A DNA stretch of 64,000 bases, from positions 30,755-94,754 of the forward strand of contig JAJRZW010000032.1 in the NCBI GenBank assembly GCA_024275015.1. Reading direction: 5' to 3'. Shown here in pieces: positions 10,096 to 46,354 of the stretch. A program made the position numbers and the translations under genes. This stretch comes from Deltaproteobacteria bacterium (lineage in GTDB: Bacteria > Desulfobacterota > Desulfobulbia > Desulfobulbales > JAJRZW01). How positions within the stretch are numbered: position 1 is the first letter of the stretch; the number at the start of each line of letters is the position of its first letter. A model generated the notes under the pieces. That model was given only the letters and a program-made list of their open reading frames with translations, searched no databases and had not been told where the DNA came from.

Positions 10096-10156
10096 TTCCT
10101 TTCCATAAGCCGATTAGTTTTCAACTTCCTTTATACTCCCGGTTCATCTATCATTT

Positions 10157-10313
10157 CAGTAGCCCGTTGAAAAAACAGGCTGGTCGCGGCGCATGGACGC
10201 ACCGCCGATTTTTCCGGGCTGAAAAACCCGGTGGAATCGAGAGGTTGGCCAAAAGTTGCTTTGCTCAACCGGAGTTGAAAAAGCCATGAACGGTTTTTTC
10301 AACGAATTGTTAG
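10157..10313. repeat. modular hairpin repeat family R1, copy A (full length)
   Basis: cagtagcccgttgaaaaaacaggctg...gcggcgcatggacgc...ccgggctgaaaaacccgg...tcgagaggttggcc...ggagttgaaaaagcc...ttttttcaac. The same module order occurs at 44483-44632, and inverted at 19201-19354 and 54229-54358. Confidence 0.85.
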
Positions 10314-10363
10314 ATGTGACGTTCATTGAAACTTATCAGACTTGTTATGAAAAGGGAAACCTC

Positions 10364-11014: not shown

Positions 11015-11065
11015 AAAAACGTCCATGGCTTTTCAACCGTCTGACAAGTGGGTATCTTGATTAAA

Positions 11066-11280
11066 CCTGAATCCGTGGCGGCTTGGTGGCAACCGGGTAT
11101 GTATTCATCTGAATGAATACGTTTTTTACCGGATTTTCACTCCGGCGGAAATTTCACCCCACCGCCCTTCGGGAGTTCGGGAACGGCGCATCTGCAGTGT
11201 CAACCCGTTGATATACCGAAGTATCATCAACGGGTTTGTCTCCTTGCATCTGCGCCGTTCCCGAACGTCACGGATCCAGG
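11066..11280. repeat. MITE-like element R2, copy a (215 bp with 12-bp terminal inverted repeats)
   Basis: Ends are CCTGAATCCGTG ... CACGGATCCAGG. Nested hairpins: gggaacggcgca/tgcgccgttccc and caacccgttgat/atcaacgggtttg, with the loop taccgaagta. A second copy lies inverted at 38566-38784. Confidence 0.75.
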
Positions 11281-19385: not shown

Positions 19386-20774
19386 ATGAACAACTCCCCC
19401 CGATACGTCCCCCCACCCCCGCCCCGGATCTATATAGTAGATGAAGAGGTGGTCACGGTTCAGAACCTTGTCAAGACCCTGAGCAAAGACGGTTATGTGA
19501 CCGAAGGCTTCATTACGGGTCAGAATGCCCTGCTTCAGGTCCGCGACAATCCGCCCGACCTGACGATCATGAATGTTAATCTGCACGACGGCGACGGCAT
19601 CGACCTGATGCAGCGCATGCGGGCCGCCGCCCCGGAGATGGAGGTGATCCTGATAACTGATCACCCCGCCATCGATCAGGCGGTGGAAGCCACCAAGAAG
19701 GGGGCCTTCAACTATCTCAAGAAACCGGTCAAACTTAATACCCTTTGCAAGACCATTACCGACGCCCTGGGCCTGGCCCGACAGAAACGACGAAAAAACC
19801 TGATCTACCAGGGAATCCACGGCACCGATCACTTCGGTGAGATCATCGGTGCCGCACCGGCCATGAAGGGCATCTTCAAGACTATATCCCAGGTGGCGCC
19901 CCTGGATTGCAGCGTCCTCCTCCAGGGTGAATCCGGCACCGGCAAAGAACTGATAGCCCGGGCCCTGCATGACAACAGCCCACGCCGGGACAAACCTTTT
20001 GTCTCTTTCAACTGCGGCGCCTTTGCCGACGAATTGATCGCCAACGAACTCTTCGGCCACGAAAAAGGCGCCTTCACCGGTGCGGTCAGCACCAAACTTG
20101 GCCTGATGGAAACGGCTGACGGCGGTACCGTCTTTCTCGATGAAATCGGTGAGATGCCCCTGCCCCTGCAGGTCAAGCTGCTGCGGGTAATCCAGGAACG
20201 TAACTTCATCCGGGTGGGCGGTACCAATCCAGTAGCCATTGACGTCCGCTTCATCGCCGCCACCAATCGTAACCTCGAAAAAATGGCGACGGCCCGGGAA
20301 TTTCGCCAGGACCTCTATTACCGCCTCAAGGTGGTAATGATCGAATTGCCGTCCCTGCGCCGACGAACCGAAGACATTCCCCGACTGGCCAGCCACTTCG
20401 TCCACAAGGCCGCCACCCGCTTCGGCAAGAGCGTGCCGATTCTTAGCCGGGACATTTTGATCGAACTCGCCCGCTACAGCTTCCCGGGTAACGTCCGGGA
20501 GCTTGAGAATATCATGGAACGGGCCGTGGCCCTGTGCCAGGGCCGTTCCCTGAGACTGGCGGACCTGCCCCCCGACATCCTCTGCCAGACCAACGCCGCC
20601 GAACAGATCCCATCCAACGCTCCCCCGACAGAGATCAGGGACCTGGAGATGGATCACATCGCCAGGGTCTACCAGGAAACCGGCTACAACCAGACCGAAA
20701 CCGCACGTCTGCTGGGGATCTCCCGCACCACTCTCTGGCGTCGCCTGCGCAAGCTGCCTGCAAAGTCCCACTGA
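19386..20774 (+). CDS. sigma-54-dependent transcriptional activator (NtrC family) with an atypical receiver domain
   Basis: Receiver domain, then an AAA+ domain (GESGTGKELIARALH, GAFTGA, ESELFGHEKGAFTG-like region), then a Fis-type HTH (ETARLLGISRTTLWRRLRKL). The phospho-acceptor position reads PDLTIMNVNLHDGDG, with Asn where Asp is expected. Confidence 0.85.
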   Translation: MNNSPRYVPPPPPRIYIVDEEVVTVQNLVKTLSKDGYVTEGFITGQNALLQVRDNPPDLTIMNVNLHDGDGIDLMQRMRAAAPEMEVILITDHPAIDQAVEATKKGAFNYLKKPVKLNTLCKTITDALGLARQKRRKNLIYQGIHGTDHFGEIIGAAPAMKGIFKTISQVAPLDCSVLLQGESGTGKELIARALHDNSPRRDKPFVSFNCGAFADELIANELFGHEKGAFTGAVSTKLGLMETADGGTVFLDEIGEMPLPLQVKLLRVIQERNFIRVGGTNPVAIDVRFIAATNRNLEKMATAREFRQDLYYRLKVVMIELPSLRRRTEDIPRLASHFVHKAATRFGKSVPILSRDILIELARYSFPGNVRELENIMERAVALCQGRSLRLADLPPDILCQTNAAEQIPSNAPPTEIRDLEMDHIARVYQETGYNQTETARLLGISRTTLWRRLRKLPAKSH

Positions 20775-21054: not shown

Positions 21055-21070
21055 TGGCACAATATTTGCT
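21055..21070 (+). promoter_or_regulatory. sigma-54 (-24/-12) promoter
   Basis: TGGCAC aatat TTGCT is an exact match to TGGCAC-N5-TTGCW, about 70 nt upstream of the ATG at 21141. Confidence 0.8.
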
Positions 21071-21140: not shown

Positions 21141-21647
21141 ATGGGACCCAAAATTGCTTTATTGCTGAGCGGTTTCAGCTCCGACCTGTCGGCCGTCGTC
21201 TGCGCGGTGCAACTGGCCGATCGGACGGGGAGACGGTTCTACACTTTGCAGGCGCAGGATCCCGGCGGCGTCCCCACGCCGAGCCGTGGAGAAACTACGG
21301 CGGGAGGCCGACTGCTTGACGGATTTCGCTTCGTGGCCGAGTTCGCCGGAGTCGAAGGAGTTCAGGTTACCTGCCATCTGCTGGGGGCCGGGTCGGTGGA
21401 ACAAGTGGCCGAGTTTCTCCTGGCCAATTCCATCACCTGTCTGGTTGTTGGCGACTGGTCCGAAGGATTCCGGAAGAACCAGGAAGATTGGCTCAATGAA
21501 TTGCGGCGGAGCCTGCGTGAGGCACCGCAACGTTTTTACCCGGACCTGCTGGTGATTAAAGCGCCGATCCTGGCGGAAGCCGATTTGAAGCGAATCGTAA
21601 GCCAGTCCCGCCGTTTGAAAAAACTGGTAGTTAGTAAAAAAAATTAG
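21141..21647 (+). CDS. USP-like / hypothetical protein
   Basis: 168 aa. Alternating beta-alpha pattern (KIALLLSG...CLVVGDWSEG...LLVIKAP) reminiscent of the universal-stress/adenine-nucleotide alpha-hydrolase fold. I did not see a clear ATP motif. Confidence 0.4.
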   Translation: MGPKIALLLSGFSSDLSAVVCAVQLADRTGRRFYTLQAQDPGGVPTPSRGETTAGGRLLDGFRFVAEFAGVEGVQVTCHLLGAGSVEQVAEFLLANSITCLVVGDWSEGFRKNQEDWLNELRRSLREAPQRFYPDLLVIKAPILAEADLKRIVSQSRRLKKLVVSKKN

Positions 21648-21728: not shown

Positions 21729-22658
21729 ATGTACATGTACTTGCCAATCGCCCTGACCAGCGCCAATTATCTGGTGGTCGTGGGCTTGGGACTCTTAGTC
21801 GGCCTGCTGTCCGGCCTCTTCGGGGTAGGCGGCGGTTTTCTCATGACGCCGCTGTTGATGATGATCGGCATCCCACCGACCATTGCCGCGGCCACCGACG
21901 CCAACCAGATCGTCGCCGCTTCGGCTTCCGGGACTTACGCCCATTGGCGCCTGGGAAATGTTGACTACAAAATGGGCATTTACCTGCTGATCGGCGGATT
22001 CGTCGGCGGCGCCTTCGGCGTCCAGATCATCAAGGCACTGCGCGCCACCGGCGGCGCCGATTTTCTGATCAAAATAACCTATGTGGTGATGTTAGGCGCA
22101 GTCGGCGCCTTCATGTTTTTTGAAAGCTTAAACGCCATGCGCAAGAGCAAGAATAAACCTGTCGCCGAGACCGGGGAAGTCGCCCAAGTCGAAAAAAGAA
22201 CAGGGTTTTTCGCCTCCCTGCCCATGCAGACTTATTTTGAAAAATCCGGCGTCACCCATTCGGCCCTGGTCCCCGTGGCCCTTGGTGTCTTTGTCGGCGT
22301 CCTGGCCGCCATCATGGGCGTCGGCGGCGGTTTCCTGATGGTGCCGGTGATGATCTACATGCTGCGCATGCCCATGCACGTGGTCGTCGGCACCAGCCTC
22401 TTTCAGATCATGTTTACCTGTATCGAGGTTACCTTCCTGCAGTCATACTCCAACCACACGGTGGATTTCCTCCTCGCTATTCTGCTTCTGGTCGGCTCCG
22501 TCTTCGGGGCCCAGATCGGCACCATCATAGGCAAGAAGCTACATGGCGATCAACTCAAGATCCTGCTGGCCATCATCGTGTTGGGCGTTACTGTAAAAAT
22601 CGTGCTGGAACTGGTAATGGAGCCCTCCATACTGCTGGCCATGAAGGGAGGACATTGA
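21729..22658 (+). CDS. TauE/SafE (DUF81) family anion exporter
   Basis: 309 aa with an internal duplication, each half containing the GVGGGFLMxP motif (GLFGVGGGFLMTPLL and IMGVGGGFLMVPVM). Confidence 0.8.
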   Translation: MYMYLPIALTSANYLVVVGLGLLVGLLSGLFGVGGGFLMTPLLMMIGIPPTIAAATDANQIVAASASGTYAHWRLGNVDYKMGIYLLIGGFVGGAFGVQIIKALRATGGADFLIKITYVVMLGAVGAFMFFESLNAMRKSKNKPVAETGEVAQVEKRTGFFASLPMQTYFEKSGVTHSALVPVALGVFVGVLAAIMGVGGGFLMVPVMIYMLRMPMHVVVGTSLFQIMFTCIEVTFLQSYSNHTVDFLLAILLLVGSVFGAQIGTIIGKKLHGDQLKILLAIIVLGVTVKIVLELVMEPSILLAMKGGH

Positions 22659-22661: not shown

Positions 22662-23447
22662 ATGCGTAACAAAAATACAGCGCGGCTTACCGCCATATTA
22701 CTGTTGTTATGCCTGTCCCTGACGGCGTCACCTGCCATATCCGCCATCACCTGCCAGGTGAGTCCGAAACAGATCGACATCAATCTCACCTACCATGGCG
22801 CCACCCTCACCGTTACCGGCGAAAGCGCGCCCGGTGACGACCTGGTTATCCGCATCGGCAACAAGGCGGCCCCCGCCCATTACAAATATATTGGCAAGGC
22901 CGGCGGAATATTCTGGATGAAGAAGGGAAATATAACCTTCAAAAACGTACCCGGGGTTTATATTCTCGCCAGCTCCGGAAAACTGGAAAGCATCCTTGAC
23001 CCCGAGGCGATGAAGGCCAACCTGCTCGGCTACGCGGCCATTAAGGCCACGGCCGAAATAGAAGAGGGCAACCCCGGGCTGAGCAAAAACGAGGCTCGCT
23101 GGAAGAATGAGTTCATCCGTTTCAAGGAAAAACAGAACCTCTACACCATCCACCCCGGCACCGTGACCATACAACCGGGGCAGACTAACACCTACCGGGT
23201 GGAGGTACCCTGGCCGTTCCAGGCCCCTCCCGGCACCTACAGCATCGAGGCCATGGCGATCAGGAACGGCAAGGTGGCCGAACGAGCCCGGACCGATTTC
23301 ACCGTCGCCCGGACCGGAATGGTGGCCAAGCTCACTGACCTGGCCTTCAACAAGCCGGCACTCTATGGTATCATGGCCGTGGTCATCGCCATCATCGCCG
23401 GTTTCGCCGTGGGAATGATCTTCAAGAAGGGAGGAGGCGCCCACTAA
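22662..23447 (+). CDS. TIGR02186/Alph_Pro_TM-like protein (signal peptide plus C-terminal TM anchor)
   Basis: Signal peptide, a beta-rich periplasmic part and a C-terminal TM helix (LYGIMAVVIAIIAGFAVGMIF). To my knowledge this family is typically encoded next to DUF81 permeases. Confidence 0.55.
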   Translation: MRNKNTARLTAILLLLCLSLTASPAISAITCQVSPKQIDINLTYHGATLTVTGESAPGDDLVIRIGNKAAPAHYKYIGKAGGIFWMKKGNITFKNVPGVYILASSGKLESILDPEAMKANLLGYAAIKATAEIEEGNPGLSKNEARWKNEFIRFKEKQNLYTIHPGTVTIQPGQTNTYRVEVPWPFQAPPGTYSIEAMAIRNGKVAERARTDFTVARTGMVAKLTDLAFNKPALYGIMAVVIAIIAGFAVGMIFKKGGGAH

Positions 23448-23480
23448 AGACAGGTCGATCTACATTCATAAGACATACAA

Positions 23481-23510
23481 ATACCCGGCAGCCGACAGAC
23501 TGCCGGGTAT
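23481..23510 (+). terminator. perfect 11-bp hairpin (terminator- or processing-like) abutting the next start codon
   Basis: ATACCCGGCAG-ccgacaga-CTGCCGGGTAT, followed only by TTG. There is no real U-tract, so this may be an attenuator or stabiliser rather than a canonical terminator. Confidence 0.4.
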
Positions 23511-26105
23511 TTGTCGAGGTCCGCCGTCAACGTGCATCCTTTATTGTTGAAAATAGCTCGATTCTTCGGCCGGGCGGATCATAATTCAGGCGTTGACCCG
23601 CGTCTGATCCTCGAACGTTTTCGCCTGGTCCTCCGCAGCAATAACCGGGCCATGGAAATTATCGCCGACCTGGGAGAAAAACTCAGCGGTAACTACATTT
23701 TCGACAGCCAGTACATACACGACAATATCAAAGACCTGATCAACACCCTGCACGACTCAGTTGAAGCCCTCAACAATCTCGATGCCCGGCACCGGGAACT
23801 CTATCCGGTCCTAACCCGCCTGACCGAGCATATTCATGCCGTCATGCGGCACAAAGACGATCGACAGGGACCAAGAATCCTGCCTCTGGAAGAAATTTCT
23901 CCCCTGCATTGGGGCATCGTCGGCGGCAAAAACGCCCATCTCGCCGAGATAATTCATCACCTCAAACTCGACATTCCCCCCGGTTTTGCCATCACTACCC
24001 GCACTTACCACGAATTGATCGACCATAACGGCCTGCGTCCCCTGGTGGATCGTTATGAATCCCTGTGGGCCGAAACGGACAACACCGACGAACTTGAAAA
24101 TTTACGTTATCGCCTGGCTTCCGCGTTGACCACCACTGAATCGCCGCCAGGTTTGATGACCGAACTTGAGGAGCATTTGACGGACCTGATCTCCGTAACG
24201 GATGGTCCCTGCGCCCTGGCGGTAAGAAGCAGCGCCCCGGAAGAAGACCTCGATTTCTCTTTTGCCGGCCAGTTTCTCTCCCGGCTGAACGTGCCCCCGG
24301 AGCCGGCAGCGGTGTTTGCCGCCTACCGGGATGTGGCCGCCAGCATCTTCAGTCGCAGGGCCATCGACTACCGGCGCTGGTTGTTCCCCGAAGACGGACA
24401 CATGTCGATCGGGGTCGGCTGTCAACTGATGATCGATTCCCGGGTCAGCGGCGTGGCCTACACCACCGACCCCGGGAACCCCGGAGACGAGACAATGATC
24501 ATTGTCGGGACCTGGGGCCAGGGGGCCGGAATCGTCGAAGGAGAATTCCCCGGCGATACTTTTATGCTCAGTAAAGATAACCCACCGACGATCGACACCT
24601 GTCAGATTTCCCGCAAGGACAGCGCCCTGTACCTTGCCGACGACGACGGGCTCGAGGAACGAAACCTGACCCCGGAATTGCGGCAGACACCGTGCCTGAA
24701 CGAGGCCCAACTGGTGGAACTCGGACAGAGGGTGTTGCAGCTGGAAAATTACTTCAAACGGCCCCAGGATATCGAATGGACCTTTGACCGGAGGGGACGT
24801 CTCTTTATTCTCCAGTCCCGGCCTCTGCTGGTGCCGGTGACCCGGGAACTGCGCCGGGACCTGGCCGAGTCCATCAAACAGTATGAAGTGCTGGTTTCTG
24901 ATCTGGGGCAGGTGGCGCAGCAGGGAATCGGGGCCGGGCCGGTCCATGTGGTGCGGCAGGACACGGACCTGGATGATTTCCCGGATGGCGCCATTCTGGT
25001 GGGTCGCCGTGACTCATCGCACTTCGCCCGGGTCATGCACCGGGCCGCCGCCATTGTCACTGAAATAGGAACCCCGGTCAGCCACATGGCCACCCTCTGC
25101 CGGGAAATGAAGGTACCATCCCTGGTCAATGTCCCGGGTATCCTCGACCTGGTCGAAAACGGCCGGGATATCACCGTCGATGCCGAAGACCGCCGCATTT
25201 TCCGGGGGCGGGTAAAGGAGCTCATGGCCTACCAGCTTTCCACCAGCGTCAATCTGGAAGTCACCCGGGAGTTCCGCTTACTGCGCCAACTGCTCAACAG
25301 CATCACCCGCCTGCACCTGGTCGACCCACTTATGGATCAGTTCACCCCGGACAGATGCCGGACCTACCACGACCTCCTGCGCTATATTCATGAAAGCGCG
25401 GTGATGACTCTGGTCAACATGGGCAAGGACGAACGCAGTCTGTTGCGTAATAATACCGCCCGCCACCTGGATCTACCGATTCCGGCCGGAATTCTGGTCA
25501 TTGATATCGGCGGCGGCGTAGCCCCGAAAACCCCAGCCGACCGGGTCCCCTTCGCCGCCCTGACCTCCATTCCCTTCCGGGCCATCCTTAACGGCATGCT
25601 CTACCCGGGGATCTGGCACCGGGCCACAATGCCGGTGGGTTTTCACGACCTGATGAGCAGCATGCTCTCAGTGCCTACCGACGCCCTGGAAGGCCAGTAC
25701 ACCGGCCATAACATCGCCGTTATCAGCCATAACTATGTCAATCTCTGCTTCCGTTTCGGCTACCATTTCAATATCATCGACGCCCGCTGCGACGAACGCG
25801 AACGCGACAACCACATATATTTCCGCTTCCTCGGAGGGGCCACCGACCTGAGCAAACGCAGACGACGGGTCCGGCTGATCGCCGAGATCCTCACCGCTTT
25901 CGACTTCAACGTCCGCACCAGGGGCGATCTGGTCATCGCCCGGGCCGGCAATATGCCCCGGAGCGAAATGGAACGGATCCTTGATATCCTGGGAAGGCTG
26001 GTCGGTTTCACCCGGCAGCTTGACGTCCGCCTGGACAGTGAGACAGCGGTTGATTACTATATAGAGGCGTTCCTGTCAGGGAATTACGATGTGGTCTCAA
26101 GCTGA
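23511..26105 (+). CDS. PpsA/PPDK-like dikinase paralogue 1 (ATP-grasp + phospho-His swivel + unknown C-terminal domain)
   Basis: GGKNAHLAEI, LAVRSSAPEEDLDFSFAGQF and PQDIEWTFDRRGRLFILQSRPL form a PPDK_N-type ATP-grasp. TEIGTPVSHMATLCREMKVPSLV is the PEP-utilizer mobile His domain. The last ~300 aa show no TIM-barrel motifs I recognise. The TTG start is supported by an equal-length N-terminus in paralogue 2; an alternative GTG lies at 23532. Confidence 0.8.
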   Translation: MSRSAVNVHPLLLKIARFFGRADHNSGVDPRLILERFRLVLRSNNRAMEIIADLGEKLSGNYIFDSQYIHDNIKDLINTLHDSVEALNNLDARHRELYPVLTRLTEHIHAVMRHKDDRQGPRILPLEEISPLHWGIVGGKNAHLAEIIHHLKLDIPPGFAITTRTYHELIDHNGLRPLVDRYESLWAETDNTDELENLRYRLASALTTTESPPGLMTELEEHLTDLISVTDGPCALAVRSSAPEEDLDFSFAGQFLSRLNVPPEPAAVFAAYRDVAASIFSRRAIDYRRWLFPEDGHMSIGVGCQLMIDSRVSGVAYTTDPGNPGDETMIIVGTWGQGAGIVEGEFPGDTFMLSKDNPPTIDTCQISRKDSALYLADDDGLEERNLTPELRQTPCLNEAQLVELGQRVLQLENYFKRPQDIEWTFDRRGRLFILQSRPLLVPVTRELRRDLAESIKQYEVLVSDLGQVAQQGIGAGPVHVVRQDTDLDDFPDGAILVGRRDSSHFARVMHRAAAIVTEIGTPVSHMATLCREMKVPSLVNVPGILDLVENGRDITVDAEDRRIFRGRVKELMAYQLSTSVNLEVTREFRLLRQLLNSITRLHLVDPLMDQFTPDRCRTYHDLLRYIHESAVMTLVNMGKDERSLLRNNTARHLDLPIPAGILVIDIGGGVAPKTPADRVPFAALTSIPFRAILNGMLYPGIWHRATMPVGFHDLMSSMLSVPTDALEGQYTGHNIAVISHNYVNLCFRFGYHFNIIDARCDERERDNHIYFRFLGGATDLSKRRRRVRLIAEILTAFDFNVRTRGDLVIARAGNMPRSEMERILDILGRLVGFTRQLDVRLDSETAVDYYIEAFLSGNYDVVSS

Positions 26106-26213: not shown

Positions 26214-26630
26214 ATGACGGCACTTGATGACACCGTTGCCGGGACATACCGGCTGTTGATAATAGACGACGAAGCCATTGTCGGTATACGGCTCGCCCAT
26301 ACTTTCACCAAGATGGGCTACAAGGTGACAACCCATACCGATCCGGCCCAGGCCCTGGCGGAAGTGGAACGGCAACCATTTGACGTGGTAGTCACTGATC
26401 TTAAAATGGAAGGAATCGACGGGATGGAGATACTGCGGCGGGTCAAAAAAATCAATCCGTCCACCCGGGTAATCATGATCACCGGCTACGCCGGGAATGA
26501 TACCGCCGATACCGCCTTCCGTGAAGGGGCCTTCGATTTCATCACCAAGCCCTTCAGCCTCGACGAGATAAAAAACGCCATCCTGCGATCATTTGCTGCT
26601 CCGGCCCAGGAAAGGGGTGAAAAAAAGTAA
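26214..26630 (+). CDS. single-domain CheY-like response regulator (RR1)
   Basis: LLIIDDE...FDVVVTDLKMEGIDG...VIMITGY...FITKPF contains all canonical receiver residues. Confidence 0.9.
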   Translation: MTALDDTVAGTYRLLIIDDEAIVGIRLAHTFTKMGYKVTTHTDPAQALAEVERQPFDVVVTDLKMEGIDGMEILRRVKKINPSTRVIMITGYAGNDTADTAFREGAFDFITKPFSLDEIKNAILRSFAAPAQERGEKK

Positions 26631-27053: not shown

Positions 27054-28577
27054 GTGCGATTGAGAGGTCCGGAAAAAATAGCGGCGTTGGAGGAATTATC
27101 CAGACGCCACGGCTGCGGCTGGGTCGAATACAGGGAAGAGATCAATCAACCCCTGACGGTTCTGAACAAACTCGACCTTGAGCGGTTAAAAACCGACCTC
27201 TGGTTCCCCCACACCGTTGAAGACAACCGGGCCACGATAGTCGCCTGCAACCCCAGCCCGGCTCTGGCCGGAATGATAAAGTCAATCCTGGGCGTGGAAA
27301 GCGTCGAATTTCTGGTCACCCTGCCCCACGACCTTGTCCGGATCATCGAACACAATCAGGACGTCAACCACGGATTCCCCGCATCCTCCGGACGCACCCC
27401 CCTGGCCCTGGTCCGTACCCATCTGGCCGGCCGCCGTTCGCTGTTTGCCTATTACCGTACCCTGCTGGCCAAAAGCCGTACCGGTCTCGCCTTCATCCGC
27501 ACCGGTATTTCCTGCGTCACCATCGCCCTGTTCTTCATCCGCGTTTTCGGCCACCGATGGTTACTGCTTCTGGAAGGTCCGCTGCTGGCAGTGGGCTGTG
27601 TAATGGTATTCGACGGAATCAAGTGGTATCTGCCGGTCCGGCGCTTCAAGGCCCGGATCCCTAATTGCGTTGATACCGGGGGCACCGGGGGCACCACCGT
27701 GCTGACCGTCGCCGACGAGGAGGATTTTCCCGTTTTTTCCCGTACCGGAGAAATCGCCACCGCCGCCGAACTACGCCGGGCCTGGACCGACCTCTCACCG
27801 GTAATGCGCCGCCGTTTTCTCGCAAGCGACCGGACCGATTACGCCGAGGAGCGGACGCTGCTGGCCTGCCTGCGCTCCCGCATGGCAAAAGTCCGCACCG
27901 GCCTGGCATTTTCCCGCACCGGTATTTCCCTGGCCAGCCTGGGATTCGCCATGATCCGCAAGTTCCCCCCCAGCCTCTGGATGATCCTGGACCTGACCCT
28001 GATCGGCATCGGAGCAGTCATGGTCGTCGAGGGATTCCTCTGGTATGCCGGAAGTCGCCATGCCGGGGTCAAAGGCAATGCCTCGGTAAAACAAAACCTC
28101 AAGGCCGCCACCATCTGGGATCACTTCTTTCCCCACCGCCACTCTCCGCCCGCCCCCAATATTATCTCGCGGACCCTGCCAGTACACAGCAGCGACCTGC
28201 CCGGCATCTGGGCCACCACCGGCGTGGCCCTGGAACGCACCGTACTGGCCGAACGCCGCAATGTCATGTCCCGACTGCGTACAGTCATGGCCCGGGCCCG
28301 TACCGGCTTTGCCTTTATCCGCACCGGATTTTCCCTGGCCCTGATCGGCATCGCCTTTATCCTCTATTTCGGTGGGGGGGTGACCGGCTGGAACATCTTT
28401 GACTTACTGATGGTCGGAGGCGGGATGGCTCTGATCATCGACGGACTTTACTGGAGCCTGCCGGCCGAGCGCACCCGCCGCCAGTTCCCCTATTGCTACG
28501 GAGATATGGAGATAACCATTCCCGACTACGGCATCCCGGCCCGATCCTGGCGCACGGCGGTATTCAGCAATGAATAG
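27054..28577 (+). CDS. T2SSE_N (GspE/MshE N-terminal-like) domain fused to three DUF202 membrane repeats
   Basis: The N-terminal ~100 aa (LDLERLKTDLWFPHTVEDNRATIVACNPSPALAGMIKSILGVESVEFLVTLPHDLVRIIE) resemble the T2SSE_N fold. They are followed by three units of an amphipathic R/T-rich helix plus two TM helices: YRTLLAKSRTGLAFIRTGIS..., LRSRMAKVRTGLAFSRTGIS..., LRTVMARARTGFAFIRTGFS... Confidence 0.7.
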   Translation: MRLRGPEKIAALEELSRRHGCGWVEYREEINQPLTVLNKLDLERLKTDLWFPHTVEDNRATIVACNPSPALAGMIKSILGVESVEFLVTLPHDLVRIIEHNQDVNHGFPASSGRTPLALVRTHLAGRRSLFAYYRTLLAKSRTGLAFIRTGISCVTIALFFIRVFGHRWLLLLEGPLLAVGCVMVFDGIKWYLPVRRFKARIPNCVDTGGTGGTTVLTVADEEDFPVFSRTGEIATAAELRRAWTDLSPVMRRRFLASDRTDYAEERTLLACLRSRMAKVRTGLAFSRTGISLASLGFAMIRKFPPSLWMILDLTLIGIGAVMVVEGFLWYAGSRHAGVKGNASVKQNLKAATIWDHFFPHRHSPPAPNIISRTLPVHSSDLPGIWATTGVALERTVLAERRNVMSRLRTVMARARTGFAFIRTGFSLALIGIAFILYFGGGVTGWNIFDLLMVGGGMALIIDGLYWSLPAERTRRQFPYCYGDMEITIPDYGIPARSWRTAVFSNE

Positions 28578-29790
28578 TCCTGACTCCCAGGCCCCGGCGT
28601 TCGCCTCCCTGGCCCGGACCGGGCGGATCACCACGGAGTGTCTGGCCGCCGCCGCCTCTGCCGCAGTGTCCAGAGATGTGCCGTTGGCCCACATTCTCCA
28701 CAACGAATACGGAATCAGCCGGCAGACCCTCTTGCAGGCTCTAAGCAGCCATTACCACTGCCCGGCCGTCGAGTACGACGAACGCCTGCCCATCCCTCCG
28801 GAAATCCTGCACCACATGCCGGGGAAAAAAATGGTGGACGAAGGGTGGTTTCCGATACTGAAAAACATTAACGGCGATATGGTGATAGCCGCCATCGATC
28901 CCGCTGACCCCGGTCTCGGCAAGGCAGTGACCAAGGTTATGGGCCCGGGAAACCATGAGTTTCGCGTTACCCTGCCCGACGACATCGTCTGGTTTGCCCA
29001 GGACTTCCTCCACGCCCCGCCCGGCGAACTGATCGGTACCGAGCGTACCGGCCTGGCCTACTGGCGCAACACCATGGCCCAGTGGCGCACCCGTATGGCC
29101 TGCTACCGCACCGACCTGGCCAAGGCCAGAACCGCGCTGTCCACGGGACGGGCCGGTCTGGCCTTGACGACCATAGCCGAGACCCTGTGGCGCAGCGGCA
29201 GACTCCAGACCGAACAGTGGCTGCCGCTTGCGGTGTTAAACCTGGGGATGGTGCTGCTTATCATCGCCGCCCCCATCTACCTGAAAATCCGCCGTTCGCG
29301 CATGACGCCACCCGGTCCCCAGACCCTGGTGGAAGTAACCGCCGCGACCTTGATGTTCCTGGAAAATTTTCATTTCCCGATACCATCCGATCATGCCGCC
29401 AAGCCGCGCAAGGATACCATGCTGGCCCGGCTGGGCGATTTCCTCGCCGACTACTCAACCATCATCTATCCGGTCCCCGCAAGTCGCGAACGCACATATC
29501 TGGCCCGGGAACGCAATGTCCTGGCGGCGCAACGCACCATCGCCGCCTGCTATCGGACCATTTATTCACGAGCACGCACCGGACTCGCATTTATCCGCAC
29601 CGGGGTATCTTTCATCAGCATCGGCCTCGGCCTCCTCGGCTACTTCGGGCTGGGAAGCAACACCCCCTTTGACCTGATTCTGGTCCTGACCGGCACGGTG
29701 CTGATCGGCGACGGCCTGCTCTGGTACCTGCCGGTGCGGAAAGAGCAGGCCGAACTTCCACGAAGCCGCAGCGCCGCGCTGGCCGAATAA
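28570..29790 (+). CDS. T2SSE_N-like domain fused to two DUF202 membrane repeats
   Basis: The start overlaps the upstream stop (ATGAATAG). The N-terminal region is PLAHILHNEYGISRQTLLQALSSHYHCPAVEYDERLPIPPEILHHMPGKKMVDEGWFPILKNINGDMVIAAIDPADP. Two DUF202 units follow: ERTGLAYWRNTMAQWRTRMACYRTDLAKARTAL... and ERNVLAAQRTIAACYRTIYSRARTGLAFIRTGVS... Confidence 0.7.
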   Translation: MNSPDSQAPAFASLARTGRITTECLAAAASAAVSRDVPLAHILHNEYGISRQTLLQALSSHYHCPAVEYDERLPIPPEILHHMPGKKMVDEGWFPILKNINGDMVIAAIDPADPGLGKAVTKVMGPGNHEFRVTLPDDIVWFAQDFLHAPPGELIGTERTGLAYWRNTMAQWRTRMACYRTDLAKARTALSTGRAGLALTTIAETLWRSGRLQTEQWLPLAVLNLGMVLLIIAAPIYLKIRRSRMTPPGPQTLVEVTAATLMFLENFHFPIPSDHAAKPRKDTMLARLGDFLADYSTIIYPVPASRERTYLARERNVLAAQRTIAACYRTIYSRARTGLAFIRTGVSFISIGLGLLGYFGLGSNTPFDLILVLTGTVLIGDGLLWYLPVRKEQAELPRSRSAALAE

Positions 29791-29881: not shown

Positions 29882-31300
29882 ATGAAAATAGAGCATAAAA
29901 TCTATCTTTCCAACGCGGTGCATATCGTGCTGCTGCTGCTGATCGGTATCTTCGCCCTGCACAACCTGAACCAGCTCTATACCAAATTCCGTTTCACCGC
30001 CATCGCCGACGGACTGAACACCGGCTTCCTGGAAATGCGTCTGGCTGAAAAAAACTATTTTCTCTACCGGGACCAGACAGCACTGGAAGCGATCACCACC
30101 AGGATCAACAAAACCACCACCACCATGCAAAAACTCAAGAGCGACATCATCCGGGCGGTTGGTCCCGCCAGCTATGCCGGTCTGGAACAACGGCTCAAAA
30201 ACTACAGGAGAATGGTCGCCGCCATTCACCAGGGCGAACGTAACAGTCCCGGAATCCGCAAACAGCTGCGAAAGGCGGGACAGGATCTCAAGATTTTCTC
30301 CGAAAACATAACCGTCCTCGAACGTAAAAACGTCGCCAAGATTATCAACCATTCCAAGACAATACTGCTCTACTCCTTCTGGGCCGTGGTCCTGTTCGCT
30401 CTTTTCTTCAGCCAGCATACCGTCCGCAGCATCGGCGGAGCCCTGCGCCAAATCGTCGCCCTGACCCGGGCCATCTCCCGGGGGAACTACAAATCAATCG
30501 ACCAGAAGCCCTCGGCCGACGAAATGGGCGCGGTGATCACGGCCATCAACACCATGGCCAATGAACTCAAACAGCGGGAACAGGAGATCATCCAATCAAA
30601 AAGACTCGCCTCCATCGGCGTTCTGGTGGCCGGGGTGGCCCACGAGCTTAACAACCCCCTGAACAACATCTCAATGATCGCCCAGACCTACGAGGATGTT
30701 TATGACCGCCTCGGTCGCGAAGAGCGGATAAGTTTCATGAACCAGATCGAAGAAGAGACCGAACGGCTGCGCCTGATCATCAAAAACCTCCTCGACTTTT
30801 CCCGCCCCAAGGAACCTCGTCTGGCCCAATCCGAACCCAACCACGTCATCCATAAGACCCTGGATCTGGTCTGCAACATGTTAGAAGTCTCCAACATCCG
30901 CACCAAACTGGATCTGGCCGATGTGCTTCCTGACTTTTACATCGACGAACACCAGATACTGCAAGTGCTGGTCAACATCACCACCAACGCCATCCAGGCC
31001 ATGAGCAGCGGCGGCGAGTTGACCATTCGCAGCCGTTATCTTGAAAAACAGGACGAAGTGGAATTCGAAATCCGCGACAATGGCAACGGCATCCCCCCGG
31101 AGTTTCTGGAGCATATCTTTGATCCGTTCTTCACCACCAAGGAAGAAGGCGGCACCGGCCTGGGGCTCTGGATCAGTTATGGTATAGTTAAACAGCATTT
31201 TGGTAATATCCACGTCGAAAGCTCGGTCGACGGCGGTACCGCATTTTTTATTACTTTCCCGAGCTGCAACAAGGTGAAAAGGTGTAACAATGAAGAATAA
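29882..31300 (+). CDS. sensor histidine kinase (2 TM, extracytoplasmic sensor, HAMP, HisKA, HATPase_c)
   Basis: H-box [14 protein letters not shown]-box [14 protein letters not shown]-boxes RDNGNGIP and [14 protein letters not shown]. Confidence 0.9.
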
Positions 31301-31661
31301 TATCATGATCATCGATGACGAAAAAATAGTGGGTGATATGGCGAAGCTGTCCCTGGAACAGGAGGGTTACGAGGTCGAAACCTTTCTCGACGGGGAGAGC
31401 GCCCTGAACCGCATGGAGAAAAAATCATTCGACGTGGTGATCACTGATCTCAAGATGAAAGGTATCGACGGCCTTGAGGTTCTGCGCAACGTCAAACACC
31501 TCTACCCCGATACCGTGGTGATCATGATCACCGCCTTCGCCAATCTGGACGTGGCCATCGAGGCCATGCGTGACGATGTTCAGGACTTCTTCCCCAAGCC
31601 GGTCAAGATCAAGGAACTCAAGGCCTCAATCAAAAAGGCCCTGGAGAAGAAGGCGGGCTGA
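31290..31661 (+). CDS. single-domain CheY-like response regulator (RR2)
   Basis: IMIIDDE...FDVVITDLKMKGIDG...VIMITAF...FFPKPV. It is a paralogue of RR1 and overlaps the HK stop by 11 nt. Confidence 0.9.
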   Translation: MKNNIMIIDDEKIVGDMAKLSLEQEGYEVETFLDGESALNRMEKKSFDVVITDLKMKGIDGLEVLRNVKHLYPDTVVIMITAFANLDVAIEAMRDDVQDFFPKPVKIKELKASIKKALEKKAG

Positions 31662-31677: not shown

Positions 31678-34296
31678 ATGGCACGGAAAGCCCCGTTCCG
31701 CCGCGCCTGGCGCGACCGGCTACGCCACGCCCTGGGCCGTGCCCCGGCTGGGGCACAACACGATCCGGCCGCGCTCTTCACCCGCTTCCAGGCGGTCCTG
31801 GCCGGCAACAACCGGGCGCTTGAGGCAATCACCGATCTCGGTGAAAAGCTGGGCGGCGATTATCTTTTCGATGTCAACTACACCAAAGCCGCTTACGGCG
31901 AACTCTTTGCCGCCATTTCCGACGCCCTGGAAAATTTCACCATTCTCACCAACCACGCCCACCCGGGCCTGGCGGAAATACTCGCCCGCCTCGACCGCCA
32001 GGTTCAGCGGATTCTGACCGAAGAAGTCCCGGAATCGGATCCGCTTCTGATCTTCTACCCGGAAATCACCTGGGACCTGGCCGAGACCGTAGGCGGCAAA
32101 AACTATCATCTGGCCCTGTTAGGCAATGAGCTGCGGCTGCGGACCCCGCCGGCCTTCGCGGTCACCACCCGCGCCTTTGATCTCTTCCTCGCCCATAATC
32201 AACTGAGCGAACGTTTACAGGCCCTGGCCGACAGCCGGAACCAAAAAACCGACCTGGCCGGCCTGCGGGAGGCGATTATGGCCGGGGCTATGCCGCCTGA
32301 ACTTGAGACGGAACTGGCCCGGGCCGCCCGTCGGCTGGCCGGGCGCCGGGGAGCGAAATATCTGCTGGCGGTTCGCAGCAGCGGCGAAGAGGAAGACGGA
32401 GATTTTTCCTTTGCCGGCCAGTTCGAATCAATACTCAACGTCCCGGCCACCGCCGCGGCCATAGGCGCGGCCTGGAAACAGGTGGTGGCGAGTCTCTTCA
32501 GCCCCGGAGCCGCCTCCTACCAGCTACAACTTGGTTACGATCCGGGGCGGTTGAAAATGGCGGTGGCCTGCGTGGCAATGGTCAAGGCCCGGGTCAGCGG
32601 GGTTATATATACCGTGGCCGGTTCCGGACAGGACGATGTCGTCCTTATTAACGCGGCCTGGGGCCTGGGTCCGGCGGTGGTTGACGGAATCACCGACGCT
32701 GATCTCTATCTGGTGAAAAAGGACGGGGTGGCGATAATCAGCGAGACCCGGATCGGCCGCAAGGAATTGATGGTGGTTGGAGATGGCGCAGCCGGAATCA
32801 GGACCGTACCCACCCCGACGGCCGACCGGGGCCGTCCCTGCCTCGTGGACAAACAGGTTCTGGAACTGACCCGCCTGGCCATGAAGATTGAAAAACATTT
32901 TCGTTCCCCCCAGGACATCGAATGGGCCATCGACGACCGGGGGAAAATCTTTATCCTCCAGAGCCGGGCCCTGAAGGTTGACGAGGGTGAAAAGCCACCC
33001 GACCCGGAGAACGAGGGGGCAAACGACCCGGACCTGCCGGTCCTGATGGACAACCAGGGGGTGGTGGTCCGCCACGGAATAACCGCCGGCAGAATCTTTC
33101 ATGTCCGCAGCCCCGAAGACCTGGAACAGGTACCGCGCGGGGCGGTTCTGGTGGCCCGGCACGATTCGCCCCAATATGTCCGGGTGATCCCCTTTGTCAA
33201 CGCCATCATCACCGATACCGGAGTGGCCACCAGCCACATGGCCTCAATCTGCCGGGAATTCGCCATTCCCACCGTGGTCAACACCGGCAACGCCACCAGG
33301 CTTCTCCCGGCCGGCCGGGAAGTCACCCTGCGGGCCGACAGTGACGGTACGATCACCGTCTATGCCGGCGTGGCCCGGGAATTGCTGCGCGAAGAGCGAC
33401 GAAGCAGCGTCAAGCTGCGCCATCTCTACGAGTTCCGCCGCCAGAAATATCTGATGCGCTACATCACCCCGCTTCATCTGGTCAACCCACTGGAAGAGGA
33501 GTTCACTCCTGCCAAATGCCGCTCGGTCCACGACCTGATCCGCTTCATGCACGAAATGGCGGTGCAGGCCCTGGTGGCCGATGCCAACCGGCAGGCCGGA
33601 AGCCTCGCCCGTCGCCTGTTCGGCCGGGCAAACACGCTCCGGGACCTGGCCCTGCCCCTGCCGATCCGTATGCTGCTGATCGATATCGGCGGGGCCCTGG
33701 TTCCCGACAGCGGCCGCAAAGTGACCCCGGAGCAATTACGCTCCCGTCCCCTGCGGGCGATCCTGCGGGGAATGCTTGAACCCGGAAGCTGGAGTAACGA
33801 AACAATGCCGCTGACCGGAAGGAATTTCCTCGCCGGCATGACCCGGACCGCCGACCCCGGCGCCATCTCCGCCGGCGCCAACCTGGCAGTGGCCTCGGCC
33901 GACTACGTCAACCTGAGCCTGCGTTTCGGCTATCACTTCGACGTCCTTGACTCCTACTGCACCGACCAACCCCGCAACAATCACATCTTCTTCCGTTTCG
34001 TCGGCGGCGCCGCCGCCCTCACCAGCCGGTCGCTGCGCATTCACTTCATGGCCAGGGTCATGAGCGCCTACGGCTTTATGACCAGAACCAGGGGTGATCT
34101 TCTCGTGGCAAGGATCTCCAACCTTCCGGCCGCGGAGGTGGAACAACTGCTGACCAACCTCGGCCGCCTGATCGGTTGCGCCCGGCAGATGGACGCCGCC
34201 CTGGTTTCTGAAGCGGAGGCGGAACGATTGGCGGATGAGTTTCTCGCAGGCAAAACCGCCGGAGATTTCCTTTTTGACAAACACGGTAATAGATAA
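31678..34296 (+). CDS. PpsA/PPDK-like dikinase paralogue 2
   Basis: The ATG at 31678 (MARKAPFRR...) lies 16 nt after the RR2 stop. GGKNYHLALL, LAVRSSGEEEDGDFSFAGQF, PQDIEWAIDDRGKIFILQSRAL and the swivel His TDTGVATSHMASICREFAIPTVV are present. The C-terminal region is collinear with paralogue 1 (LRFGYHFDVLD, NHIFFRFVGGAA, TRTRGDLLVAR). The track start at 31570 lies inside RR2. Confidence 0.8.
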   Translation: MARKAPFRRAWRDRLRHALGRAPAGAQHDPAALFTRFQAVLAGNNRALEAITDLGEKLGGDYLFDVNYTKAAYGELFAAISDALENFTILTNHAHPGLAEILARLDRQVQRILTEEVPESDPLLIFYPEITWDLAETVGGKNYHLALLGNELRLRTPPAFAVTTRAFDLFLAHNQLSERLQALADSRNQKTDLAGLREAIMAGAMPPELETELARAARRLAGRRGAKYLLAVRSSGEEEDGDFSFAGQFESILNVPATAAAIGAAWKQVVASLFSPGAASYQLQLGYDPGRLKMAVACVAMVKARVSGVIYTVAGSGQDDVVLINAAWGLGPAVVDGITDADLYLVKKDGVAIISETRIGRKELMVVGDGAAGIRTVPTPTADRGRPCLVDKQVLELTRLAMKIEKHFRSPQDIEWAIDDRGKIFILQSRALKVDEGEKPPDPENEGANDPDLPVLMDNQGVVVRHGITAGRIFHVRSPEDLEQVPRGAVLVARHDSPQYVRVIPFVNAIITDTGVATSHMASICREFAIPTVVNTGNATRLLPAGREVTLRADSDGTITVYAGVARELLREERRSSVKLRHLYEFRRQKYLMRYITPLHLVNPLEEEFTPAKCRSVHDLIRFMHEMAVQALVADANRQAGSLARRLFGRANTLRDLALPLPIRMLLIDIGGALVPDSGRKVTPEQLRSRPLRAILRGMLEPGSWSNETMPLTGRNFLAGMTRTADPGAISAGANLAVASADYVNLSLRFGYHFDVLDSYCTDQPRNNHIFFRFVGGAAALTSRSLRIHFMARVMSAYGFMTRTRGDLLVARISNLPAAEVEQLLTNLGRLIGCARQMDAALVSEAEAERLADEFLAGKTAGDFLFDKHGNR

Positions 34297-34316: not shown

Positions 34317-35165
34317 CTATCCCAGCTCCATCACCTCAAGGCCGCGGAGCCGGGCGAGGCTGAAAACCGGGCCGTCGGCGCAGACAAGTCTGCCGTCCAT
34401 GTGACAATGACGGCAGACGCCGACGCCGCATTTCATATGACGTTCCATGGTGGTAATGATCTCCTCATCGGCAAAACCTCGATTGCCGAGGTCGCTCAAT
34501 ACCGCCCGGATCATCAGCGGCGGGCCGCAGACCAGGGCCGTCTGTTTTCCCGGGGCAAAATCCGCCCGGTCAAACAGGGAGGTAACCAGGCCCACCGCCC
34601 CGTCCCATCCCGGTTCCGCCTTGTCAACGGTCAGCAGGCATTCGACATCTTTTTCCATCCCCCAGGCGGCGATATCATCGGCAAAGGCGATATCCGAAGG
34701 GGTACGGCTGCCGTATATGATACTTATGCGGCCGTATTGATCCCTTTTCTTGATACAGGTCCTGATTACCGCGGCCAGGGGGGCAAGACCGATGCCGCCG
34801 GCGACAAAGAGCAGATCACGACCGACCATATCGTCAAGGGGGAAACCATTGCCCCAGGGGCCGCGAAGCCCTACGACATCGCCTTTTTTCATCCGGTGCA
34901 TGGCATTGGTAAGCCTGCCGGCCCGGCGCACGCTTAAACGGATGTGTCCGGGCTCTTCCGGGGTTGAAGAAAACGATATCGGCGCCTCGCCGCAATGGGG
35001 TACCGAGACCATCATGAACTGCCCCGGAAGATAAGTGAACTTCTCGTTATATTCCCGGTCACAAAAGGACAGGACAAAGGTCCTGATCTGGGAATTTTCC
35101 TCAATGACCTCGTTGATAACCGCGGGCTGGGGTAAATAAAGCGGGCTGATATCCGTCATTGTCAA
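34317..35165 (-). CDS. FAD/NAD(P)-binding + 2Fe-2S electron-transfer subunit (AsrB / sulfhydrogenase gamma / PyrK-like)
   Basis: FNR-like fold (PGQFMMVSVP, LLFVAGGIGLAPL, IIYGSRTP) and a C-terminal cluster motif CGVGVCRHCHMDGRLVCADGPVF. Its start overlaps the upstream stop. Confidence 0.75.
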   Translation of the reverse strand: MTMTDISPLYLPQPAVINEVIEENSQIRTFVLSFCDREYNEKFTYLPGQFMMVSVPHCGEAPISFSSTPEEPGHIRLSVRRAGRLTNAMHRMKKGDVVGLRGPWGNGFPLDDMVGRDLLFVAGGIGLAPLAAVIRTCIKKRDQYGRISIIYGSRTPSDIAFADDIAAWGMEKDVECLLTVDKAEPGWDGAVGLVTSLFDRADFAPGKQTALVCGPPLMIRAVLSDLGNRGFADEEIITTMERHMKCGVGVCRHCHMDGRLVCADGPVFSLARLRGLEVMELG

Positions 35166-36202
35166 ATTCCTTCACAGGCCATATTAATAAAACGAATGAT
35201 GTCGGTACCGCCGAAACAGATGCCGACACAGCGGCCGCAGCCGACGCAGCTCGGGCGGCCGTGGTCTTTAACGTCGTAACACAGTTTGTGCATGAATCGC
35301 TGCCGGATGGCGTCGGTGGCGGCATTCACCGGGTTATGTCCCCCGGCCATATTGGTGAAACCGGCAAAAGTACAGGCGTCCCAGCTCCTCAGCCTTTCAC
35401 CGCGGACGTTATCAACGGGCCGGTCAATGATGGTAAAACAGGTACAGGTGGGGCAGAGGTAAGCGCAGCCGCCGCAGTCCTGACAGCGCAGCGACAACTC
35501 ATGCCACACCGAGTCATCAACCTTTTTTTCCCGCAACCGTTTGATGGCCTGGTCCACATGAACCATGCGGGCAAAGCCGCCTCTTGCCTCGAGAAACACC
35601 TGGTATTTCCGGGCCCGGTCCTCCTTAGCGGCGACGGCAAAGAAATACCCCCACTTCCTGACAATCTCCTCTCCCCTGCTCCGCCCCGCTTCCACCAGGA
35701 ACCGGTCACCGAGGTCGGTGAACTGCAGGTCGGAACCGTACTCGAGAAAAGGCCCGTGTCTCGTGGCATTACAGAAGCAGTCGGCAAAAGAGGTATTGCA
35801 GTTCAGGCCGATCAAAACCGAGTTCTCCCTCTTTTGAAGATAATGCGGGTCGGTCCTGCCCTGGAGGAAGATCACATCCATGTATAATACGGCTGAAAGG
35901 TCGCAGGGACGGACCCCGAAAAAAATGGTCGGCGGCGGCTTGACCGTGGCGGGGCTGAAAGAGTAATCTCCCGGACTGTTTTTATAGGTAAAAAGCACCT
36001 CCTGCTGTGGCAGCATGAACTCCTTGAGGGAGTTCTGCGGCTGATTAACAAGATCCGGCGGCTGGGAATCAAGATCTTCGATAACGGTAAACAGGGTGTC
36101 ACCGTGACAGTTTTTTAACGGTACCACCAGCTGGTATTCCTTGCTCAATTTACGCAGGAAGGTGGTCAGATGGTCTTTTTTAAGGATCAGTTTATCACTC
36201 AT
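35162..36202 (-). CDS. 4Fe-4S subunit (AsrA / sulfhydrogenase beta-like)
   Basis: CQDCGGCAYLCPTCTC and CVGCGRCVGICFGG ferredoxin-type motifs in the typical AsrA/HydB layout. ATGA overlap with the fdhA stop. Confidence 0.7.
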   Translation of the reverse strand: MSDKLILKKDHLTTFLRKLSKEYQLVVPLKNCHGDTLFTVIEDLDSQPPDLVNQPQNSLKEFMLPQQEVLFTYKNSPGDYSFSPATVKPPPTIFFGVRPCDLSAVLYMDVIFLQGRTDPHYLQKRENSVLIGLNCNTSFADCFCNATRHGPFLEYGSDLQFTDLGDRFLVEAGRSRGEEIVRKWGYFFAVAAKEDRARKYQVFLEARGGFARMVHVDQAIKRLREKKVDDSVWHELSLRCQDCGGCAYLCPTCTCFTIIDRPVDNVRGERLRSWDACTFAGFTNMAGGHNPVNAATDAIRQRFMHKLCYDVKDHGRPSCVGCGRCVGICFGGTDIIRFINMACEGI

Positions 36203-46276: not shown

Positions 46277-46354
46277 CCTGAATTCGTGAGCGTTCGGGAA
46301 TCGGACGAAAAGACCATTTTTGAAGACACCTTAAAATTAAAAAAGGGGGAAACC

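Follow-up and report, generated by a model that had tools for sequence, protein, structure and literature searches.

The 64,000-nucleotide window analysed here (positions 30,755 to 94,754 of contig JAJRZW010000032.1, from a bacterium of the Desulfobulbales) contains two adjacent genes for membrane proteins, which we call MemA and MemB after the labels given to them in a preliminary description made from the sequence alone. Coordinates of both genes, of their parts and of the genes around them are collected in Table 1. The two open reading frames (ORFs) exist as that description had placed them, and the overlap between the MemA stop and the MemB start is consistent with translational coupling. 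MemA and MemB are paralogs, with 31% identity (E 1e-34) between MemB 55-386 and MemA 12-331, and together they carry five DUF202 units, three in the former and two in the latter. Newly described here are the heptad-arginine anatomy of these hairpin units, the conserved 3+2 split with its gene order and overlap, and two kinds of relatives, a fusion to a receiver domain and a single chain with five units. In the pair, MemAB for short, a known membrane module takes on a new architecture; its arginine-heptad helix is unusual, and the regulators and enzymes encoded around it are conserved.

Homologs are publicly annotated as 'DUF202 domain-containing' or 'GspE/PulE/PilB domain-containing' proteins, and family members carry the JGI label 'uncharacterized membrane protein YidH (DUF202 family)'. 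No NCBIfam model matches MemA or MemB. Our literature search returned no paper on the family, and none of the papers mentioning DUF202 is about these proteins.

Hairpin units with an arginine ladder

A scan with the Pfam hidden Markov model for DUF202 (PF02656, gathering score 23.4 bits) identifies three stretches in MemA (E 6.9e-12, 46.1 bits) and two in MemB (E 4e-6, 27.6 bits), so that the count of 3 + 2 units given in the preliminary description holds above threshold. In all five units RTxLAxxRTG is followed by two hydrophobic helices, in agreement with the DUF202 signature (E)RTxLAWxRT. The Arg-Thr dipeptides are exactly 7 residues apart throughout, and the alignment of the five units is almost gap-free, showing 5 invariant arginine columns at heptad spacing with R-T-x-L-A-x-x as the repeat. 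Every unit carries an arginine ladder of 5-6 rungs. Beyond these five units, the triple-heptad pattern has just one other match in the window, which is antisense and spurious. A helix with arginine at every heptad is an unusual structural motif by itself.

Structures were predicted with AlphaFold2 from alignments of 117 (MemA) and 119 (MemB) sequences. The mean predicted local distance difference test score is 82.8 for MemA, with a predicted template modelling score (pTM) of 0.74, and 76.4 for MemB (pTM 0.51). All units are modelled with the heptad region and the first transmembrane (TM) helix merged into one continuous helix of about 52-57 residues (the B1 helix is listed as 162-209), after which a return helix of 25-33 residues follows; hydropathy and models both give two TM helices per unit. 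The Arg/Thr-rich segment preceding two TM helices, as described earlier, can therefore be recognized in the sequence, whereas in the models it is not a separate element and runs on into TM1. Given one continuous first helix and one return helix, the unit is predicted to be a helical hairpin with both ends inside, whose outer loops are short and whose TM2 is followed by basic residues. On the ladder face within the membrane, the family consensus has small polar residues one heptad deeper than the ladder and, in three of the five units, a further arginine two heptads deeper.

The five units are not interchangeable. Identity among orthologs of one position amounts to 74-86%, against 38-52% between positions, as expected for units with fixed places within a hetero-assembly.

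Conservation of the 3+2 split and of the operon

The family is large, with more than 1300 homologs of MemA and more than 1100 of MemB. Three heptad runs are present in 120/120 MemA homologs listed and two in 120/120 MemB homologs listed. An exhaustive profile search through 1.84 billion representatives yielded 1563 matches, in which MemA-type proteins always show 3 stretches and MemB-type proteins 2; among the best 150 of these 1563 matches there is no natural MemA-MemB fusion. Based on contigs from one genome per species, a MemB relative is encoded in 234 species-level genomes. These are Desulfobulbia (Desulfobulbaceae, Desulfurivibrionaceae, Desulfocapsaceae and Candidatus Electronema), Hydrosulfovibrio ferrireducens and Nitrospirota (Thermodesulfovibrionales, Candidatus Sulfobium and Dissulfurispiraceae). 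The carriers are sulfate-reducing, sulfur-disproportionating and cable bacteria. Cultured ones include Hydrosulfovibrio ferrireducens CB1MN, Thiovibrio sp. JS02 and Desulfobulbus/Desulfurivibrio strains with the operon. The closest reference metagenome-assembled genomes, labelled 'uncultured delta proteobacterium', are 73-74% identical.

Gene neighbourhoods were compared over 80 fetched loci, using the eligible loci as denominator for each count. The gene directly upstream of MemB is MemA in 74/75 loci. Next downstream of MemB comes a HAMP histidine kinase (56 of 70), followed by a stand-alone receiver (53 of 67) and by a PEP-synthase-like (PEP: phosphoenolpyruvate) dikinase in the expected slot (44 of 59), which gives the conserved operon order MemA-MemB-histidine kinase-receiver-dikinase. 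Any dikinase within 10 kb is found in 30/34 loci and a dikinase upstream of the pair in 12/65. Less frequent is the combination of TauE and Alph_Pro_TM genes upstream of MemA (26/65), and the order histidine kinase, sigma-54-dependent response regulator, TauE, Alph_Pro_TM, MemA, MemB recurs in several loci. A MemB start that overlaps the MemA stop by 8-17 nt is possible in 68 of 76 related loci, and in three related places the called genes overlap by 14 nt. The two proteins are probably made in a fixed ratio from their overlapping genes. A tandem of MemA paralogs (544 and 568 residues, with longer N-terminal domains) precedes MemB in some Nitrospirota, for example at 6547-11203 of locus L045 and also in L055, L056, L058 and L060.

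Several more distant relatives are informative about the module itself. P0349 is a single chain of 476 residues with five evenly spaced units, each composed of 2-3 RT heptads and a TM hairpin (Pfam DUF202 105.8 bits); the Asn/Asp richness of its N-terminus may indicate a low-GC or eukaryotic source. In P0261-P0263 a run of 15-20 consecutive R-T-x-L-A-x-x heptads stands ahead of a single DUF202 hairpin, and the helix with arginine at every heptad seems to be a family-wide element of variable length. In P0270 heptads and a DUF202 hairpin (42-47% identical to the MemA/MemB units) are fused to a C-terminal receiver. This receiver is 49% identical to RR2, the stand-alone receiver downstream of MemB, and is thereby closer to it than RR1, the second receiver of the locus, which shares 45% with RR2. 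From this fusion it can be argued that receivers of the RR2 type and the membrane module work together directly.

Two further sets of candidates were discarded. Several short matches with one unit (P0267, P0272 and P0281) look like C-terminal MemB fragments from tiny contigs and were not counted as a class of their own. P0333 and P0337 are unrelated proteins; they contain ER(D/E)xLA coiled-coil repeats without TM hairpins and are spurious profile matches.

Table 1. Coordinates of MemA, MemB and neighbouring features (positions in the window; aa, amino acid residues)
Feature	Position	Strand	Description
MemA	27054..28577	+	ORF of 507 aa with GTG start (NCBI call: 505 aa); truncated GSPII/MshEN-like N-domain and 3 DUF202 hairpin units
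MemA N-domain (aa 1-105)	27054..27368	+	predicted GspE-N1/MshEN alpha/beta subdomain fold
Unit A1 (MemA aa 114-198)	27393..27647	+	ladder R114/121/128/135/142/149(/163); helices 114-165, 171-198
Unit A2 (MemA aa 249-334)	27798..28055	+	ladder R260/267/274/281/288(/302); helices 249-303, 310-334; best Pfam stretch, 274-331
Unit A3 (MemA aa 383-476)	28200..28481	+	ladder R395/402/409/416/423; helices 383-439, 444-476
MemA stop/MemB start overlap	28570..28577	+	8 nt, ATGAATAG
MemB	28570..29790	+	ORF of 406 aa; complete GSPII/MshEN-like N-domain and 2 DUF202 hairpin units
MemB N-domain (aa 1-146)	28570..29007	+	predicted MshEN/GSPII fold in full, with four helices and the alpha/beta part; c-di-GMP motif absent
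Unit B1 (MemB aa 159-242)	29044..29295	+	ladder R159/166/173/180/187/194(/208); helices 162-209, 217-242; most divergent unit
Unit B2 (MemB aa 307-393)	29488..29748	+	ladder R308/315/322/329/336/343; helices 307-359, 365-393; most conserved unit (86% among orthologs)
Sensor histidine kinase	29882..31300	+	NCBIfam and Pfam; two TM helices, extracytoplasmic loop, HAMP-HisKA-HATPase
RR2	31290..31661	+	stand-alone receiver, 123 aa
DK2	31678..34296	+	PEP-synthase-like dikinase; ORF opens at 31570, likely ATG at 31678
RR1	26214..26630	+	stand-alone receiver, 138 aa
DK1	23511..26105	+	second dikinase paralog, architecture as DK2
Alph_Pro_TM/TIGR02186 membrane protein	22662-23447	+	
TauE/SafE-family anion permease	21729-22658	+	
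Sigma-54 promoter consensus	21055..21070	+	exact match, TGGCACAATATTTGCT; the sole zero-mismatch match in the window
Sigma-54-dependent response regulator	19386..20774	+	NtrC/AtoC-like

Relation to the VTC channel and a proposed complex

DUF202 is widespread, and its sole characterised role is as the pore of the eukaryotic VTC polyphosphate (polyP) channel. In VTC, Vtc1, Vtc3 and Vtc4 occur at a ratio of 3:1:1 with three TM helices per subunit; the pore has a lining of five TM1 helices and has basic rings formed by Vtc1 K24 and R31, 7 residues apart, mutation of which lowers polyP, while the subunit interface uses TM3 (bioRxiv 10.1101/2023.01.27.525886; PMC9911596). Structures are available as PDB 7YTJ and 8I6V, and the Vtc1 sequence that we used is identical to 8i6v_A. 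Residues 24-85 of Vtc1 match Pfam DUF202 at 63.9 bits, which together with the cryo-EM papers bears out the statement in the preliminary description that five DUF202 subunits make up the polyP channel.

When both families are placed in the Pfam register, K24 and R31 fall on two ladder arginines per unit (e.g. R135/R142 and R274/R281). By analogy we infer that the ladder arginines of MemA and MemB would face a pore. Shared between the two systems are the Pfam family, a total of five units split unevenly between gene products, a TM1 that starts with (E)RTxLAxxR(T), basic residues 7 apart on the face that lines the VTC pore, and an arginine after TM2. The MemAB units are concatenated 3+2 in two chains, whereas VTC has five separate subunits; in VTC two rings take the place of the MemAB ladder, which has 5-6 rungs and reaches ~30 residues out into the cytoplasm; MemAB has GSPII/MshEN-like domains and no TTM polymerase or SPX domain; and MemAB belongs to the bacterial cytoplasmic membrane, VTC to the vacuole or acidocalcisome. 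Judged by sequence, the link between MemAB and VTC is at the family level only.

The E. coli YidH-type DUF202 proteins likewise share the Pfam family with MemAB. They differ in being ~115 residues long with one unit, and in having no heptad extension, GSPII domain, tandem units or such an operon. Three TM helices are predicted for YidH-type proteins. The one mention of YidH returned by our literature search is in the abstract of a study on D-alanine export (PMC10299036).

Our preferred reading is that MemAB forms a heteromeric complex in which five arginine-laddered hairpins are arranged in a VTC-like way around an arginine-lined pore for an anion, under control of the kinase and receiver and coupled to a dikinase. 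We estimate its probability at roughly 40%, and it is offered as a tentative model. MemA and MemB would assemble 1:1, and 3 + 2 hairpins would add up to five. Their ladders would face a common axis, as the TM1 ring does in VTC, and would form an arginine-lined pore continued by a long cytoplasmic vestibule of 5-6 arginine rings, about 60-70 A in length. This pore might bind or conduct an anionic species, probably a phosphorylated or otherwise polyanionic one. The N-terminal GSPII/MshEN-fold domains would serve as cytoplasmic docking modules rather than as sensors of cyclic di-GMP (c-di-GMP). Judging by the operon conservation and the one domain fusion, the HAMP histidine kinase would signal to RR2, which would act directly on the membrane module. 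Finally, the activity of the complex would be coupled to one or more PEP-synthase-like dikinases with a novel substrate domain.

A number of observations weigh against this model. Sequence searches of the PDB with MemA, MemB and the unit profile gave nothing significant and did not return the VTC chains, and the hhalign comparison of the unit profile with Vtc1 is insignificant as well. Each unit has two TM helices, against three in VTC, so that the helix used at the VTC subunit interface has no counterpart. The Glu30-Arg83 ionic lock of VTC is not clearly conserved in register: the arginine after TM2 is conserved (WYLPxR), and a glutamate precedes the arginine only in the outer heptads, not at the R31 equivalent. 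The single chain with five units, P0349, is one sequence on a 2-kb Logan contig. In 5 of the 80 loci, all from Nitrospirota, two tandem three-unit MemA paralogs precede MemB and 3+3+2 units are encoded, which shows that gene content does not always amount to five. Finally, in Foldseek the isolated AlphaFold2 models have compact helical bundles as neighbours (MemA ABC-exporter-like ones, MemB four- and six-helix ones), so that closed bundles without need of a partner are possible.

It might be argued that the number five is a coincidence. MemA and MemB could be independent six- and four-helix bundles, or could form higher-order or alternative oligomers (for instance with MemA paralogs), and the hairpins could have another role, such as that of a small-anion or metabolite permease unlike a VTC-type ring. 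The confident and compact MemA monomer model fits this view, as do the closed bundles that are the structural neighbours of both models, the 3+3+2 operons, the units without TM3 and the lack of a significant sequence link to VTC beyond common Pfam membership. Anion permeases of the CitMHS/ArsB type and TauE are encoded nearby, which suggests ordinary anion transport. A chance number is nonetheless difficult to reconcile with a 3+2 split, a gene overlap and a position-specific conservation that hold across two phyla, or with the existence of P0349. Vtc2 and Vtc3 are alternative subunits in yeast, and by analogy the extra Nitrospirota MemA paralogs could be alternative subunits too. Overall we consider coincidence unlikely.

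A stronger version of the pore model would make MemAB the bacterial counterpart of VTC. It would then be a pseudo-pentameric, arginine-laddered translocase of the cytoplasmic membrane. A linear polyanion, either polyP or some other phospho- or sulfo-polymer or oligomer, would be made or activated by the novel dikinases and threaded through the translocase, whose gating would depend on a phosphorylated receiver and not on SPX and inositol pyrophosphate. To us this version appears quite improbable. If it were true, the eukaryotic VTC membrane module would have a prokaryotic functional ancestor, and there would be a new polyanion export route in sulfur-cycling Desulfobulbia (including cable bacteria) and Nitrospirota.

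The fixed 3+2 complement, the arginine ladder, the conserved operon and the presence in 234 genomes make MemAB a concrete and testable bacterial system in which the role of DUF202 assemblies and the origin of the VTC pore can be studied. A gated polyanion conduit, if MemAB is one, would represent a new transport mechanism in environmentally important anaerobes.

Cytoplasmic domains, regulators and dikinases

According to the preliminary description both proteins start with a T2SSE_N/MshEN-like domain. In terms of fold this is supported, although PF05157 (MshEN, gathering score 23.1 bits) stays below its cutoff in MemA (19.4 bits) and MemB (20.4 bits). Precomputed PF05157 calls are carried by most MemB homologs and many MemA homologs. 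Foldseek searches of the PDB match residues ~1-100 of MemA to XpsE-N (2d27), MshE-N (5htl) and PilF GSPII with a probability of 1.00 and a root mean square deviation of 2.7-3.6 A over ~95 residues. Residues ~1-146 of MemB match PilF GSPII-A (9g1w, 139 columns), the closest structural match, and MshE-N (5htl_B, 134 of 139), with a TM-score of ~0.65 and a probability of 1.00. Going by these models, the assignment of both domains to the GSPII/MshEN fold is right. The resemblance to the domains of MshE, PilF, PilB and XpsE/GspE extends over the whole domain in MemB and over the alpha/beta half in MemA, whose N-domain in this genome consists mainly of the alpha/beta part (~105 residues) with most of the four-helix nucleotide-binding subdomain gone. 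The traffic ATPases differ from MemAB in that the domain is fused to an ATPase there and to membrane hairpins here.

Binding of c-di-GMP by this fold depends on two tandem 24-residue motifs, RLGxx(L/V/I)(L/V/I)xxG(L/V/I)(L/V/I)xxxxLxxxLxxQ, for which we scanned in the strict and the relaxed published form. Neither form is present in MemA or MemB, both motifs being missing, nor in any of 240 homologs (120 MemA and 120 MemB), which agrees with the merely partial match noticed before. In the MemB family consensus, Pro, Ala and Tyr/His occupy the positions of the contacting Arg, Gly and Gln. Sensing of c-di-GMP by these domains is thus not supported by their sequences. For PilF GSPII-A, the title of one study reportedly concerns the reconstruction of c-di-GMP binding capability, which we take to mean that the native domain is non-binding.

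These results bear directly on the reading put forward at first, in which a 3+2 heterodimer forms a conduit for polyP or a similar polyanion, is regulated by c-di-GMP through its MshEN-like domains and is fed by the neighbouring dikinases. Several of its elements stand: the DUF202 homology with VTC and the count of five, the MshEN fold, an arginine ladder that suits a linear polyanion, and the dikinases, of which DK1 and DK2 indeed flank the pair and are conserved as neighbours. The regulatory part is not supported, since the key Arg, Gly and Gln are replaced family-wide, MemA has lost most of the nucleotide-binding subdomain, and the conserved regulators are the HAMP histidine kinase and the stand-alone receiver instead of a nucleotide second messenger. 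As for polyP itself, no specific link is supported: ppk, ppx, TTM and SPX are absent from the window genes scanned, and we know of no dikinase of the PEP synthase/PPDK superfamily that makes polyP. We therefore hold this combined reading to be very improbable.

Both dikinases keep the PPDK_N ATP-grasp and the swivel phospho-histidine domain in the order of PEP synthase, with the swivel motif T-S-H in DK2 and V-S-H at the equivalent place in DK1. Further similarity is limited: the alignment to PEP synthase covers positions ~1-470, and NCBIfam equivalog scores of 271-301 bits lie far under the cutoffs of 598-740. Compared with the superfamily of PEP synthase, pyruvate phosphate dikinase and rifampicin phosphotransferase, the ATP-grasp and swivel histidine are shared, whereas the PEP/pyruvate TIM barrel is absent from DK1 and DK2 and replaced by a C-terminal domain of ~290 residues. 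A helical extension of ~130 residues precedes the common part. A search with the C-terminal domain as query recovered nothing but fragments from this dikinase family and gave no functional clue. As many as four of these paralogs are present in related loci, every one next to a stand-alone receiver, and the receivers might be partners or even substrates of the dikinases.

In another explanation MemAB is a signalling scaffold: the hairpins serve as membrane anchors and the arginine-heptad helices as coiled-coil stalks, while partners are recruited by the GSPII-like domains, so that receivers and dikinases are held at the membrane or a membrane signal is relayed. The dikinases may then phosphorylate receiver proteins. 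The tight linkage of the pair to kinase, receivers and dikinases agrees with such a role, and so does the receiver-DUF202 fusion in P0270. GSPII domains have protein-binding roles (GspE-N1 binds GspL, and PilB-N binds PilZ), and the PilB-N-PilZ complex (7lko) is among the structural matches of our domains. Relatives with 15-20 heptads before a single hairpin do resemble long stalks. On the other hand, it would be unusual for a purely structural coiled coil to keep arginine invariant at one heptad position for 5-6 turns and to extend the pattern into TM1, where Thr/Ser and a further arginine lie on the same face; this face corresponds to the pore-lining face of VTC TM1, and an anchor needs no strict conservation of five distinct units. 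A scaffold is in our opinion possible, if somewhat doubtful. Should it apply, MemAB would be a new membrane module linked to an uncharacterised class of dikinases.

With respect to transcription, the sigma-54 consensus is positioned between the activator gene (19386-20774), which it follows closely, and the cluster; the 21141-21647 ORF and the TauE gene lie downstream of it. From this position, the cluster, or at least its first part, seems to belong to a sigma-54 regulon. A scan for promoters and terminators gave no convincing internal terminator or sigma-70 promoter that would delimit the transcription unit. The 21141-21647 ORF itself (168 residues) has no Pfam match. The TauE/SafE and Alph_Pro_TM genes are separated by a 3-nt gap, and in related loci Usp genes often lie between these two and MemA. 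Between the Alph_Pro_TM gene and DK1, a perfect palindrome with a 17-bp stem (ACAAATACCCGGCAGTC...GCTGCCGGGTATTTGT) occupies 23477-23514, where it overlaps the TTG listed as the start of DK1. Its role could be that of a terminator, an attenuator or an operator, and DK1 may in truth begin at a codon downstream of this TTG.

Other genes in the window include a CHASE2-adenylate/guanylate cyclase (38831-40750, minus strand) and a GAF-HD/HD_5 protein of HD-GYP-like type (8422-10095, minus strand). Genes for cyclic-nucleotide signalling are thus present in the neighbourhood, though outside the conserved operon. Downstream of DK2, on the minus strand (34317-37824), Pfam identifies an FAD/NAD-binding Fe-S subunit and a 4Fe-4S dicluster protein; the 541-residue ORF at 36199-37824 resembles a molybdopterin oxidoreductase when its translation is inspected by eye. 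Probably this set has no relation to the operon and represents a redox module of the sulfite or formate type. A copper-handling cluster on the plus strand (46286-51908) encodes a heavy-metal P-type ATPase with HMBD/YHS domains and a multicopper oxidase, and adjacent genes for a DUF3999 protein (470 residues) and a large predicted membrane protein with DUF2339 (927 residues) are located at 56384-60576 on the minus strand.

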